Source: Escherichia coli (GTDB lineage Bacteria; Pseudomonadota; Gammaproteobacteria; Enterobacterales; Enterobacteriaceae). Taken from it: 41,323 nt of DNA. A model generated the notes under the pieces. It was not told the DNA's origin and did no database searches. It worked only from the letters and a program-made list of their open reading frames with translations. Shown here one piece after another: positions 16,327 to 29,412 of the stretch; the first letter of the stretch is position 1, and every line of letters begins with the position of its first letter. Location of the stretch: assembly GCF_003334785.1 (NCBI RefSeq), contig NZ_QOWV01000025.1; one strand, written 5' to 3'. The translations under genes were made by a program, and so were the position numbers.

Positions 16327-17634
<1,308 letters not shown>

Positions 17635-24041: not shown

Positions 24042-24523
<482 letters not shown>

Positions 24524-24530
24524 CCCGCGC

Positions 24531-24558
24531 ATTATACATACTTAACCACCGAACGCAA
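24531..24558 (-). promoter_or_regulatory. S10 operon promoter
   Basis: Minus strand TTGCGT (24553-24558), 16-bp spacer, TATAAT (24531-24536), followed by GC-rich GCGCGGGC discriminator. Confidence 0.7.
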
Positions 24559-24590
24559 GCGTATTGCTAGTAAAGTAAACAGCCTTCGGG

Positions 24591-25010
24591 TTATCTCTCA
24601 AGTTCGTTCAGTGCATTTTTGACACGCTCTCTTAAACCGGCTTTCTCTTCGCTTTCTTCCACAGTATTTTCTTCGTCTTCAGAAGAAGAGGGGGCATTCT
24701 CAACCGCGACGCCTGGGTCATCTTCCTCCTCGACGGATTCGACGACGGGGAGTGGCTGTTTTTTGAAGAAATAGTGTTGTGTTGATTGTTTAAAAGCGGG
24801 CGTTTCAGCCTCTACAGTGACTTCGGCTTTTACTATCCAAAGCACCCATAGCTGCCTGGCATACCCACCAACCAGCACCATTCCTGCAAACCACAGGCAA
24901 ATCAGTAATAAACAAATTACATATATTATGGTGCTGTGTTTTTGTCGGGAGAAGATACCAGGGTGACCTGTTTCTTTCTGCTCACGCGCGGCGATATAGA
25001 ATTCAAACAT
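24591..25010 (-). CDS. gspB: Type II secretion accessory protein GspB, 139 aa
   Basis: One predicted TM segment (IIYVICLLLICLWFAGMVLVGGY) and acidic Glu/Asp-rich C-terminal region; immediately downstream of gspA. Confidence 0.8.
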   Translation of the reverse strand: MFEFYIAAREQKETGHPGIFSRQKHSTIIYVICLLLICLWFAGMVLVGGYARQLWVLWIVKAEVTVEAETPAFKQSTQHYFFKKQPLPVVESVEEEDDPGVAVENAPSSSEDEENTVEESEEKAGLRERVKNALNELER

Positions 25011-25011
25011 G

Positions 25012-26481
25012 TCATTTCCCCTTCACTGTTGTTTCCGGGGAAATATTTGCTTCATCCCGATATAAGTAGGCACTCTCCCCTGCCACCTGCCAGAGATGTA
25101 CTAACGTTGAAAAGCCAACAACACCGTCAGTTTTCAAGTGGTGGCTTTTTTGAAATTGCTTTATTTTTTCTACCAACAAGGGACGCCACTCCGCCGAAGG
25201 TTCTGTCGAAATATGCAATGCGCGGTTTAACATCGTTTCCAGCCAGAGAATCTCTTCCTCGCTGCTATCACGCGTAATGGTACTCTCCCCTTCCGGCGAC
25301 ATTTTCCACAACAGAAGATAATCACCCGTCCATACCGACTCAAACCATTTATGTGTCAGCGTCCACGTTTGCTGACCTACGAGGACATCAACGCTAGCCT
25401 CACCGACGCGAACGACCACAACAGGCAATTTTTTGTCCCCGACTTTAAGCGATGCGATCCAGGGCAAATTCTGATCTACCAATGTTTGTAAAGAAGCATT
25501 CCCACTTTTACATGCCAGCCCCGCTCTTACTGCCTGATCGCACCAGGCCGAATCAGCTGGGACCTCGTACCCCCATACGCCGTATAACACGCTTAGCGCC
25601 TCACTATCGCGCATCACCACATGAGCAATATCCTTAGTCATATCTTGTTTAACTACTGGCGTTACGGGTATCAGCCACGCAGGAACGGGTAACGTAGCTG
25701 TAAAAGAGGACAGCAGTAGCCAACCACAGGTAAGAGCGATAATGGTTCCACTCATCACCACGGCAAGCTGCATTTTCCGGGGGCGGTTATCACCCAATAT
25801 GCGGTAAATCATTCGCCATTGTTTTGCTGTGAAAACGCTGGTCTGCTCGGCTTGCTGTAATAAGCGAATTGTTTCGCCGGCAAGCGCCAGCTTTCTGCGA
25901 TCGCCCCGACATAATAAAGCTATCCGTTTCAGAACTCTGGCGGTTAAAAGGAGATCGGGTTGGTCAATATTCTGACCTTCAAGGATGCTTGCCTTAAGTT
26001 CGTGCTCCGTCAGACGTCCTATCGAGACAAGTTCAATGCCCTGTTTTTTAAAATCACGTTCGACTTTTCGATCGGGTCTGCCGATCAGCAAAAATTGACC
26101 GTCAGGAATAAGAGATATTGCGCGTTGGAGATCATCAAGTATGCGGCGGTGATTCAGGTGAGCATTTTCAATAATAATAAGAGGGCAGCGACTATCAGTT
26201 CGATGAAGCGCATGCAGTAATTGCCCCGCCATCTCATCTCGCGTCCAGGCGCTGTCACGGCAGCCCTGTTCAGCCGCGTTATCGTCGGTAACGATCCATG
26301 CGGCCTTACCTTGCCAGGAAACAACGAGGCTTAAAGTAATCACACGGCGATGTTTATCTTTTTGCAGTTGCTGCGCCAGCCAGGTTTTTCCACTTCCAGC
26401 CTCACCCAACAAATAGCATAGACGCCAGGTTTGACGTTTCTCACACAACCAGGAAAGAATAACTTCTCTTCTCGTAGACAT
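25012..26481 (-). CDS. gspA: Type II secretion accessory protein GspA (P-loop ATPase-like), 489 aa
   Basis: Walker A motif GEAGSGKTWLAQ near the N-terminus, central TM segment; diverges from gspC. Confidence 0.85.
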   Translation of the reverse strand: MSTRREVILSWLCEKRQTWRLCYLLGEAGSGKTWLAQQLQKDKHRRVITLSLVVSWQGKAAWIVTDDNAAEQGCRDSAWTRDEMAGQLLHALHRTDSRCPLIIIENAHLNHRRILDDLQRAISLIPDGQFLLIGRPDRKVERDFKKQGIELVSIGRLTEHELKASILEGQNIDQPDLLLTARVLKRIALLCRGDRRKLALAGETIRLLQQAEQTSVFTAKQWRMIYRILGDNRPRKMQLAVVMSGTIIALTCGWLLLSSFTATLPVPAWLIPVTPVVKQDMTKDIAHVVMRDSEALSVLYGVWGYEVPADSAWCDQAVRAGLACKSGNASLQTLVDQNLPWIASLKVGDKKLPVVVVRVGEASVDVLVGQQTWTLTHKWFESVWTGDYLLLWKMSPEGESTITRDSSEEEILWLETMLNRALHISTEPSAEWRPLLVEKIKQFQKSHHLKTDGVVGFSTLVHLWQVAGESAYLYRDEANISPETTVKGK

Positions 26482-26660
26482 AGAACTTCCTGTTTTAATT
26501 ATTGATTATCCTTAATCATAAAAATAATGTATGTATTTATTAATTAAATACATATTACTAATATAAATAAATTTTGCTTGATTCATGCAAGCGGCATTAA
26601 TACTATTTATACTAACGTCAATATACAACCCACCCAATCTATTTTATTAGAACATACATC
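26482..26660. promoter_or_regulatory. Strongly AT-rich divergent control region between gspA and gspC
   Basis: 179 bp of very low GC content by eye (long runs of A/T, TATTTATTAATTAAATACATATTACTAATATAAATAAA); separates divergently oriented gspAB and gspC-O. Confidence 0.65.
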
Positions 26661-27476
26661 GTGCCCACACTACGTTTCCCCTTCCATCTGGCGAATCATA
26701 ATAAAGATGCTGCCATCAATATATTGATTATATTTATAAGCATAGGGTCGATTATTTTTAATGTGAATTATTTCCATACAACTATAGTTAAAAATGGACA
26801 GATCATTAATCAACCAACAAACGCATTTCAGTCTGATTTCAGCCTTGCCGCTTTATGGCGTAACGAAAATCATGCTGGGGTAAAAGATGCAAATCCCGTG
26901 GCAGTTAATCAGGAAACACCTAAGCTCTCTATAGCGCTTAATGGCATTGTACTCACATCGAATGATGAGACTTCTTTTGTCTTAATTAATGAGGGGAGCG
27001 AACAAAAGCGATACTCCCTCAACGAAGCCCTTGAGTCAGCGCCGGGAACGTTTATTAGAAAAATAAATAAAACCAGCGTTGTGTTTGAAACTCACGGGCA
27101 TTACGAAAAAGTAACTCTCCATCCAGGGCTACCTGACATCATCAAGCAGCCTGATTCAGAAAGTCAAAATGTACTCGCTGATTATATTATCGCCACGCCT
27201 ATACGTGATGGAGAACAGATATACGGGCTTCGATTGAACCCTCGTAAGGGCCTCAATGCATTTACCACCAGCTTGCTACAACCAGGGGATATCGCCCTCA
27301 GGATCAATAATCTTTCGCTGACCCACCCTGATGAGGTTTCACAGGCATTAAGTTTACTGCTAACTCAACAAAGTGCTCAGTTTACAATTCGTCGCAACGG
27401 CGTACCCCGCTTGATAAATGTTTCCGTCGGGGAACTTACAGGAATGAATGGACTGCGTCATGAAAGGACTCAATAA
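26661..27476 (+). CDS. gspC: Type II secretion system protein GspC, 271 aa
   Basis: N-terminal TM segment ([15 protein letters not shown]) and C-terminal PDZ-like region; first gene of gspC-O; GTG start. Confidence 0.85.
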
Positions 27477-29412
27477 AATCACCTGCTGCTTGCTGGCAGC
27501 ACTACTCATGCCTTGTGCAGGACACGCTGAGAACGAACAATACGGCGCGAACTTCAATAACGCCGATATCCGCCAGTTCGTGGAAATAGTGGGTCAGCAT
27601 CTTGGCAAAACGATCCTGATCGACCCTTCGGTACAGGGAACCATTTCCGTACGCAGTAATGATACGTTTAGCCAACAGGAGTACTACCAGTTCTTTTTAA
27701 GTATTCTTGATCTTTACGGTTATTCCGTGATCACGCTGGACAATGGTTTTCTGAAAGTGGTTCGCTCAGCTAATGTAAAAACATCGCCAGGGATGATTGC
27801 TGACAGTTCTCGTCCAGGCGTAGGTGATGAGTTGGTCACCCGAATTGTACCGCTTGAGAACGTTCCTGCTCGTGACCTGGCCCCCCTGCTCCGCCAGATG
27901 ATGGATGCGGGTAGCGTCGGTAATGTTGTGCATTATGAACCCTCCAACGTTCTTATTCTGACCGGTCGTGCCTCCACCATTAATAAACTGATTGAAGTCA
28001 TAAAGCGCGTTGATGTCATCGGCACAGAGAAGCAGCAAATTATTCATCTGGAATATGCGTCAGCGGAAGATCTCGCCGAGATTCTTAATCAATTAATCAG
28101 CGAAAGCCACGGTAAAAGCCAGATGCCAGCCCTCCTCTCCGCGAAGATTGTGGCGGATAAGCGAACCAACTCTCTTATCATCAGTGGACCGGAAAAAGCA
28201 CGCCAGCGCATCACTTCATTACTGAAAAGCCTTGATGTCGAAGAGAGCGAGGAAGGAAATACCCGGGTTTATTACCTGAAATATGCTAAAGCCACGAATC
28301 TGGTGGAAGTGCTAACCGGTGTTTCCGAAAAGCTGAAAGATGAAAAAGGGAATGCGCGTAAGCCCTCCTCTTCTGGCGCGATGGATAACGTCGCCATTAC
28401 CGCCGATGAACAGACTAACTCTCTGGTCATTACCGCTGACCAGTCCGTCCAGGAAAAACTCGCCACGGTAATTGCGCGTCTGGACATTCGCCGTGCACAG
28501 GTGCTGGTTGAGGCAATCATCGTTGAAGTTCAGGATGGAAATGGACTAAACCTCGGCGTGCAATGGGCGAATAAAAACGTTGGCGCACAGCAATTTACCA
28601 ATACCGGATTACCGATTTTTAACGCTGCGCAAGGTGTGGCTGATTATAAAAAGAATGGTGGGATCACCAGCGCGAATCCTGCCTGGGATATGTTTAGCGC
28701 CTACAATGGCATGGCCGCAGGCTTCTTCAATGGCGACTGGGGAGTACTGCTTACCGCGCTGGCCAGTAACAATAAAAATGACATCCTCGCCACCCCAAGC
28801 ATCGTAACGCTGGATAATAAACTCGCGTCCTTCAACGTGGGGCAGGATGTGCCGGTGCTATCCGGGTCACAGACCACTTCAGGGGATAACGTCTTTAATA
28901 CCGTCGAACGCAAAACGGTGGGGACAAAACTCAAAGTTACTCCGCAGGTCAATGAAGGCGACGCGGTGTTGCTCGAAATAGAGCAGGAAGTCTCCAGCGT
29001 TGACTCTTCCTCTAACTCGACGCTCGGCCCGACGTTTAATACCCGTACTATTCAAAACGCCGTGCTGGTCAAAACCGGTGAAACGGTGGTCCTGGGCGGA
29101 TTGCTGGATGATTTTTCTAAAGAGCAAGTGTCAAAGGTTCCTCTGCTTGGCGATATTCCTTTAGTGGGGCAACTCTTCCGCTATACCTCCACCGAGCGCG
29201 CTAAACGCAACCTGATGGTATTTATCCGTCCGACGATTATCCGTGACGATGATGTTTATCGCTCACTGTCAAAAGAGAAATACACCCGTTACCGTCAGGA
29301 GCAACAACAGCGGATCGACGGGAAATCAAAAGCGCTGGTTGGCTCGGAAGATTTGCCGGTGCTGGATGAAAACACGTTCAACAGTCACGCCCCTGCGCCA
29401 TCGTCACGGTGA
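27460..29412 (+). CDS. gspD: Type II secretion system secretin GspD, about 650 aa
   Basis: Signal peptide [24 protein letters not shown]-domains and C-terminal secretin core ([18 protein letters not shown]...MVFIRPTII); start taken at second ATG (27460), first ATG (27448) also possible. Confidence 0.9.

Follow-up and report, generated by a model that had tools for sequence, protein, structure and literature searches.

How is the short and extremely AT-rich interval between the divergently read genes gspA and gspC of Escherichia coli organized, what marks it for nucleoid proteins such as H-NS, and how strongly is its sequence constrained? We addressed these questions in a window of 41,323 nucleotides, which is the whole stretch of DNA analyzed here (assembly GCF_003334785.1, contig NZ_QOWV01000025.1), and all coordinates below refer to it. 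The RefSeq annotation of the full 41-kb maps one-to-one onto this window, and a 601-bp query around the spacer is 100% identical to E. coli K-12 strains. The K-12 gspAB/gspC-O region described earlier (Francetic & Pugsley 1996; Francetic et al. 2000; Curran et al. 2017) is this very sequence, with no difference. A first-pass annotation, made from the letters alone, had described the interval as an AT-rich control region of the kind bound by H-NS. This AT-rich, H-NS-silenced spacer is a real feature, correctly interpreted and already known, and the residual novelty lies in its unusually strong conservation and in a palindrome at 26530-26554.

The locus and its gene neighbourhood

The spacer is the 179-bp intergenic interval 26482-26660, a placement that is exact with respect to the RefSeq ends of gspA and gspC. 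To its left lies gspA on the minus strand (25012-26481, 489 aa; RefSeq WP_000107576.1, with the same coordinates as in the list of open reading frames), which is the first gene of the gspAB operon and is followed in the leftward direction by gspB and the S10 ribosomal operon. To its right lies gspC on the plus strand (26661-27476, 271 aa, with a GTG start and a RefSeq match), followed by gspD to gspO and then by bfr, bfd, chiA and tufA. The spacer is thus the shared control region of both divergent operons of the K-12 chromosomal type II secretion system. The gspA-gspC region was found in 3142 of 5426 complete E. coli genomes (58%), and loss of the gsp locus from phylogroup B1 strains and from strain W through a gspO-rpsJ deletion has been reported (PMC3032704).

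Two strains carry an IS1A element at this locus. In strain GF31 (positions 2025-2791 of locus L002) an element of about 768 bp lies within gspC at 26814-26823, at about codon 52-54, with a target duplication of about 9-10 bp. The element in strain TL012 (positions 3248-4000 of locus L003) has the opposite orientation, ends at 26822 and adjoins a deletion that extends back to about 25740 in gspA, with the whole spacer gone. These are two separate IS1 events at essentially one AT-rich site. K-12-like gsp sequences were also encountered under unexpected names: a 12-kb contig deposited as Flavobacterium paronense CECT 8460 carries gspA/gspC with indel errors consistent with uncorrected long reads (L007), and a 273-bp contig was deposited as Alkalicoccobacillus porphyridii P16 (L008). 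Both most likely represent E. coli contamination in those assemblies.

Base composition and curvature of the spacer

The spacer contains 69 A, 69 T, 13 G and 28 C, which amounts to 22.9% GC as against 49.5% in the window. Just 12 of the 41,145 overlapping 179-mers of the window are as AT-rich or more so, and these lie at the spacer locus or possibly in the chiA promoter region, where the minimum ties at 22.9%. At the 179-mer scale GC content drops under 30% in just three places in the window, namely the spacer, a small patch at 38028-38214 and a patch at 40893-41247. Among the 10 intergenic regions that span 60 bp or more, the spacer also has the lowest GC content (the other nine range from 29.9 to 45.1%), which bears out the extreme AT-richness noted at first sight. 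The gsp genes themselves have 42-56% GC, which makes the AT-richness a local trait of the control region and not the mark of a foreign island. The description of the interval as almost devoid of G and C holds for the gspA-proximal half (26482-26575, 13.8% GC) but not for 26576-26660 (32.9%). Likewise, its description as full of A/T tracts is apt for the mixed runs of A and T, which reach 17 nt, but not for homopolymers, as there are only four runs of at least 4 nt. TpA steps number 30 against 26 expected.

The AT-rich zone exceeds the spacer, with 28.9% GC over 26440-26820, and includes a coding-side extension of about 160 bp in the 5' part of gspC (26661-26820, plus strand, 32.5% GC). This extension recurs in all five orthologous loci compared (5/5), where the first 150 nt of gspC have 28-35% GC and the rest of the gene 42-49%. 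The AT-rich 5' part of gspC is probably a downstream platform for H-NS. The patch at 40893-41247 covers the 5' end of chiA (38243-40936, minus strand) and the chiA-tufA spacer (40937-41227), with a 179-mer minimum of 22.9% GC and 29.9% for that spacer as a whole. The product of chiA is the endochitinase exported by the gsp system, and the literature also describes chiA as H-NS-silenced. On the composition of both patches, the control regions of the secretion machine and of its cargo, some 14 kb from each other, are matched in AT-richness.

Curvature was assessed by a helix-path calculation with Bolshoy-Trifonov wedge angles. The end-to-end/contour ratio of the spacer is 0.9575 as against a window mean of 0.9536; curvature equal to or above that of the spacer occurs in 44% of windows, and shuffling the spacer sequence on average increases its curvature. 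We detected no phasing of A-tracts in the spacer, as the power of the AA/TT helical periodicity at 10-11 bp was reached or exceeded in 875 of 1000 shuffles. The supposition that the spacer is curved DNA was therefore not borne out, as both the wedge-model path and the AA/TT periodicity lie at the window background. The segments predicted by the same calculation to be by far the most curved in the window lie elsewhere, at about 121-330, upstream of yrdA, and at about 17121-17350, at the rplF/rpsH junction, with ratios of about 0.75 as against the mean of 0.95.

A search with the H-NS high-affinity motif TCGATAAATT returned TAAATAAATT (26564-26573, plus strand, 8/10) as the best match in the spacer, with three more at 8/10 within the initial 100 bp of gspC. 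Window-wide there is no enrichment of the motif (42 matches against 41.8 expected), and since this count is at chance the match in the spacer constitutes weak evidence. Taken together, the curvature, periodicity and motif tests place the spacer with H-NS targets of the AT-rich and TpA-rich type and not with those of the bent type. AT-richness and TpA steps explain the preference of H-NS for it better than intrinsic bending does.

Published occupancy by H-NS, RNA polymerase and SlyA

The gsp operon (gspC-O) has been characterized as cryptic and silenced by H-NS (Francetic et al. 2000, as cited in passages of PMC5797941 and PMC3446290). H-NS ChIP-chip matches from the Kahramanoglou and Oshima sets are tabulated for the locus (PMC3661553 Table 1; PMC5797941 Table 2); the Grainger set has no flag there, the entries reading 'K' or 'K, O' only (PMC5797941, PMC3661553). 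In IPOD-HR profiles from which the RNA polymerase signal was subtracted, the sole prominent peak in the surrounding ribosomal-protein operon region lies in the gspA-gspC spacer, and the authors described the exact location of H-NS binding as previously unknown (bioRxiv 2020.01.29.924811). The spacer is accordingly a target of an H-NS-type nucleoid protein, as had been proposed from its composition, and the H-NS ChIP signal suggested as a check on that proposal was already in print, with the outcome predicted.

RNA polymerase is likewise known to recognize the spacer, as a genomic SELEX screen with the sigma-70 (RpoD) holoenzyme lists it as the divergent entry 'gspA < HNS > gspC' (PMC3946193). 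Together with the RefSeq gene arrangement, this listing supports the expectation that promoters for both gspAB and gspC-O lie in the spacer. SlyA was reported to bind exactly this 179-bp fragment in electrophoretic mobility shift assays (apparent Kd 50-100 nM), the primers TC59 and TC60 matching the spacer ends at 26482 and 26660, and overproduction of SlyA raised gspCDEF 2.4-fold (PMC5797941).

The locus further corresponds to island 3453428_392, gspA(-)/gspC(+), one of 78 'promoter islands', which is flagged as H-NS-bound and, at 392 bp, is longer than the spacer (PMC3661553). Such islands are defined by PlatProm as having at least 8 predicted transcription start sites (TSSs) per 100 bp over at least 300 bp. 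A simple consensus scan of the spacer yielded no more than 4 promoter-like sites, where shuffles gave 2.3 +/- 1.7, so that the 'island' property of the locus depends on PlatProm scoring. In contrast to the many redundant starts that the promoter-island idea envisages, the spacer has one specific gspC promoter that is phylogenetically conserved (see below).

Syntenic loci used for comparison

Four syntenic loci (L009, L010, L011 and L013) were fetched via GspC homologues and contig look-ups. A search of the genome collection with GspA yielded only two contigs, both E. coli-like and useless for comparison. L009 belongs to E. coli (GCA_012400105.1), and its gspA and gspC, at the same chromosomal site, show 78-79% nucleotide identity to K-12, as against 87% for the spacer. 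With a pS of about 0.5, this gsp allele is deeply divergent. The rpsJ of L009 shares 99.7% identity with that of K-12 but its GspA and GspC only 75%, which points to allelic replacement by recombination. In L010, L011 and L013 GspA and GspC are 42-47% identical to K-12. The first two retain the same rpsJ-gspB-gspA / gspC-D-E order, and L013 has the same gsp order without the rpsJ flank. The orthologous spacers of the four loci measure 154-203 bp with 24-34% GC, and apart from that of L009 they are 49-56% identical to K-12.

Promoters and translation starts

The main invariant islands of the five-locus spacer alignment include CTTG.T and T.ATA.TAT, which coincide with the -35 and -10 hexamers of a predicted sigma-70 promoter for gspC-O, TTGATT-17-TACTAT (26578-26606, plus strand; -35 at 26578-26583, -10 at 26601-26606). 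With 8/12 consensus matches it falls below the threshold of our consensus scan, which consequently missed it in K-12. The scan independently called the aligned promoter in the orthologues, as TTGATT-16-TATAGT in L010 and as TTGATC with a spacing of 16/18 in L011. Our placement of the gspC-O promoter rests on these scan matches and on the conservation of the hexamers, and the same TTGATT-17-TACTAT was predicted by Shimada 2014 (PMC3946193). From the position of the -10 hexamer the TSS would be at about 26613, giving a 5' UTR of about 47 nt. We also considered a terminator-like hairpin, GCTTGATTCATGCAAGC, at 26576-26592. Its left arm alone, which equals the -35 hexamer, is conserved in the orthologues, and we therefore read it as part of the promoter and not as an operator or terminator.

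For gspA the scan predicted a sigma-70 promoter TTAATA-17-TATGAT on the minus strand (26515-26543; -35 at 26543-26538, -10 at 26520-26515) with 9/12 matches, also among the predictions of Shimada 2014 for gspAB (PMC3946193), and the -10 position would put its TSS at about 26508. The five-locus alignment reveals no clear conservation of these hexamers in L010, L011 and L013, and as these are the three most distant loci the position of the gspA promoter is tentative. Each direction of the spacer thus has a -35/-10 pair at a spacing of 17 bp, within the 16-18 bp of a divergent sigma-70 pair, and the two predicted TSSs would be about 105 bp apart. We found no mapped TSS for gspA or gspC in the literature searched, the promoter positions given here being those indicated by consensus and conservation.

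The two genes differ in their translation signals. gspA has a Shine-Dalgarno sequence AGGAAG (26486-26491, minus strand) 4 nt before its ATG, and the block CAT.ATAC.TCCTGTA, which comprises the gspA start and this sequence, is kept in K-12, L009, L010 and L011 despite the 49-56% identity of the spacers. gspC starts with GTG (26661-26663, plus strand), as noted in the first-pass annotation and annotated in RefSeq, and the start position is kept in the four diverged loci, with three GTG and one ATG. At the aligned position L009 and L011 have GTG and L013 has ATG; L010 carries a GTG in frame with gspC, which stands in the conserved context and precedes the called ATG by 27 nt. The context ATCGTGCC is kept in L009 and L010, and the alignment has AATATA.CGTG as a conserved island. 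By inspection, there is no GGAG- or AGGA-like sequence within 20 nt upstream of gspC in K-12 or in the four orthologous loci, and the leader is A/U- and CA-rich in place of a Shine-Dalgarno sequence. The combination of GTG and a leader of this kind suggests a conserved weak or S1-dependent initiation of gspC translation. Folding of the predicted gspC 5' UTR with the start gave z = -1.29, with no evidence of a structure occluding the GTG.

At the other end of the gene, the RefSeq start of gspD at 27460 makes a 17-nt overlap with the 3' end of gspC, and the longest gspD frame begins at 27448. The overlap of 27448-27476 suggests translational coupling of gspD to gspC, by which weak gspC initiation could propagate downstream. 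Other readings of the spacer were set aside. An Rfam scan of 24300-27500 gave a spurious eukaryotic lncRNA (E=0.23) as its sole match and thus no RNA family. Two small open reading frames, one of 41 aa on the minus strand and one of 49 aa on the plus strand, begin with TTG and owe their composition to AT-richness; spacer length varies among the orthologous loci, and indels occur.

A palindrome and a candidate SlyA site within the spacer

The sequence TATGTATTTA ttaat TAAATACATA at 26530-26554 forms a perfect inverted repeat, its two arms (10+10) separated by 5 bp, and overlaps the predicted gspA -35 hexamer. Arms of 10 bp are attained in 25 of 1000 dinucleotide shuffles of the spacer, making the repeat only marginally unusual. 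In a hand comparison the palindrome is retained at 8/10 in L009, where a T to C change in one arm is matched by the complementary change in the other; by eye it is not evident in L010, L011 or L013. The one SNP seen in strain E04, at 26534, breaks it. Given its weaker form in L009 and the lack of an evident counterpart in the distant loci, we treat the palindrome as a lead only. LeuO was considered as a possible binder and dropped, as the papers naming both LeuO and gspA held no supporting record, and the gspCDEF row of Curran Table 2 (PMC5797941), in the portion of that paper drawn on here, has no LeuO mark.

Immediately adjacent is the candidate SlyA site TTATATTAGTAA (26555-26566, minus strand), which we located in the sequence from its published description as a site centred 79 bp upstream of gspA (PMC5797941). 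It lies midway between the predicted TSSs at about 26508 and about 26613. Its match to TTAGCAAGCTAA is 7/12, which is weak in AT-rich DNA.

Sequence constraint on the spacer

To quantify constraint, we compared three 179-bp segments, with K-12 as the reference, against the complete E. coli genomes with a match. The spacer (26482-26660) is at least 99% identical in 3129 of 3133 such genomes. The same level is reached by the gspA coding flank (26303-26481) in 1975 of 3138 and by the gspC coding flank (26840-27018) in 2055 of 3123, which is about 63-66% of genomes. The 95-99% identity band probably represents a few deep lineages and not about 1100 independent observations. Across 1,422 bases of flanking coding sequence K-12 differs from strains CD306 and NGF1 at 37-42 positions (pS 0.077), and the spacers are identical; for CD306, 13.7 spacer differences would be expected at the flanking synonymous rate (Poisson 1e-6). 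Over the longer distance to L009 the spacer divergence of 13% equals pN (0.133) and is far under the pS of 0.50. On these comparisons the spacer appears to evolve at roughly the non-synonymous rate. Such strong constraint fits a spacer packed with functional elements and is an indication, rather than proof, of selection, given that the lineages are non-independent and that AT-rich DNA has fewer mutable G/C sites.

A model for silencing, and competing explanations

The reading that we favour, and hold to be very probably right, is that an H-NS coat silences two back-to-back sigma-70 promoters in the spacer, that SlyA partly relieves this silencing and that the GTG start of gspC, with no Shine-Dalgarno sequence, limits translation. 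According to this reading, H-NS, probably with StpA, would polymerize over the AT-rich DNA between and around the promoters, and the coat would probably extend over about 160-220 bp of gspC, at its AT-rich 5' end. RNA polymerase would bind, yet productive transcription would remain silenced both ways in laboratory conditions. Silencing would be lifted by removal of H-NS, or partly by the counter-silencer SlyA bound near the centre of the spacer, and the start signal of gspC may further limit synthesis of GspC. Within this scheme the dependence on H-NS, its occupancy, the binding of RNA polymerase and that of SlyA have been published by others. The present analysis establishes the composition, the conserved gspC promoter, the gspA Shine-Dalgarno sequence, the position of the gspC start and the constraint. 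We infer the exact TSSs, the position of the gspA promoter, the bridging between the spacer and the gspC 5' end and the weak initiation of translation.

It could be argued that nucleoid proteins have no role here, the interval being ordinary AT-rich promoter DNA and the operons silent through weak promoters. The non-consensus hexamers (8/12 for gspC and 9/12 for gspA) and the GTG of gspC with no Shine-Dalgarno sequence are in keeping with this. We nevertheless consider it extremely unlikely, as it is contradicted by the published occupancy and H-NS-dependent silencing, as RNA polymerase binds the spacer in vitro unaided (PMC3946193) and as the GC content of the spacer is far under that of the other promoter-bearing spacers in the window. 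If H-NS is accepted as the silencer, what marks the DNA for it might still be curvature from phased A-tracts and not AT-richness as such. Intrinsic curvature is a classical view of H-NS targets, and the mixed A/T runs of up to 17 nt could be cited in its favour. With a wedge-model ratio at the window mean, shuffles that are more curved on average, an unremarkable AA/TT periodicity and only four homopolymer runs of at least 4 nt, this appears very unlikely.

The near-invariance of the spacer also admits more than one explanation. It could result from mutation bias, there being few G/C sites, from a recent recombinational sweep of one allele, or from both, and not from function. Mutation in E. 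coli is biased from GC to AT, only 23% of the spacer sites are G or C, the 95-99% band probably comprises few deep lineages, and the locus undergoes allelic replacement, as L009 attests. Against this, the divergent spacer of L009 is still 87% identical where the flanking genes are at 78-79%, with a divergence equal to pN; the conserved blocks coincide with the Shine-Dalgarno sequence, the -35, the -10 and the start codon; and bias alone would have to reduce about 14 expected changes to 0. We regard such an origin as unlikely. Another proposal is that, besides H-NS and SlyA, a sequence-specific dimeric regulator at the palindrome (26530-26554) acts as the physiological switch, and that the near-invariance of the spacer reflects sites of this kind. 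The perfect 10+10 repeat, found in only 25 of 1000 shuffles and overlapping the predicted gspA -35, would suit such a regulator, as would the paired complementary arm changes in L009 and a rate of evolution near the non-synonymous one, slower than non-specific coating of AT-rich DNA would seem to need. A P of about 0.025, obtained in a single AT-rich sequence, carries little weight, the palindrome is at 8/10 in L009, is not evident in L010, L011 or L013 and is broken by the SNP in E04, and no regulator has been linked to it in the literature searched, leaving this proposal rather doubtful. We attach a similarly low likelihood to its extended form, in which regulatory elements would be tightly packed in the spacer and purifying selection on it would match that on the neighbouring proteins in strength, with part of the constraint coming from a dimeric regulator at 26530-26554 that would be the natural trigger of the chitinase secretion system.

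Relation to other H-NS-silenced promoters

Silencing by H-NS with partial relief by SlyA, as favoured above, aligns the spacer with E. coli promoters such as those of hlyE (SlyA), bgl, proU and chiA, in which a local AT-rich patch allows RNA polymerase to bind without productive transcription and in which relief comes from hns mutation or from the MarR-type antagonist SlyA. bgl and proU have downstream silencing elements, with AT-rich DNA running into the first gene, and the AT-rich DNA of the gsp spacer likewise runs into gspC. The gsp case differs from the hlyE, bgl, proU and chiA class in that the silenced genes have about 50% GC, so that only the control region looks 'foreign', and in that one patch serves two divergent operons; no mapped H-NS nucleation site or downstream element has been published for it (bioRxiv 2020.01.29.924811).

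A second E. coli type II secretion operon under H-NS control is the T2SS-beta of ETEC. Its yghJ-pppA-yghG-gspC-M promoter is reportedly repressed by H-NS and StpA at low temperature (Yang et al. 2007, J Bacteriol). This is a paralogous cluster at another chromosomal site and is read in one direction, as opposed to the divergent gsp spacer. No temperature dependence is reported for the gspA/gspC spacer in the literature searched. K-12 is without most of the T2SS-beta cluster (PMC3032704).

Biological significance

The spacer accounts for the fact that in laboratory E. coli the chromosomal type II secretion system stays unused and chitinase is not secreted. H-NS silencing of gsp has been understood since 2000 and has been exploited in secretion engineering. 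What is added to the known K-12 region is the conservation of the gspC promoter and start across loci, the absence of predicted curvature and the invariance of the spacer at the population level. The conservation-backed positions of the gspC promoter and start may be of modest practical use for derepressing or rewiring the operon, and curvature need not be invoked for the targeting of H-NS to the spacer. Finally, the unusual constraint on the spacer speaks for regulation and use of this 'cryptic' system in nature, and against its decay.
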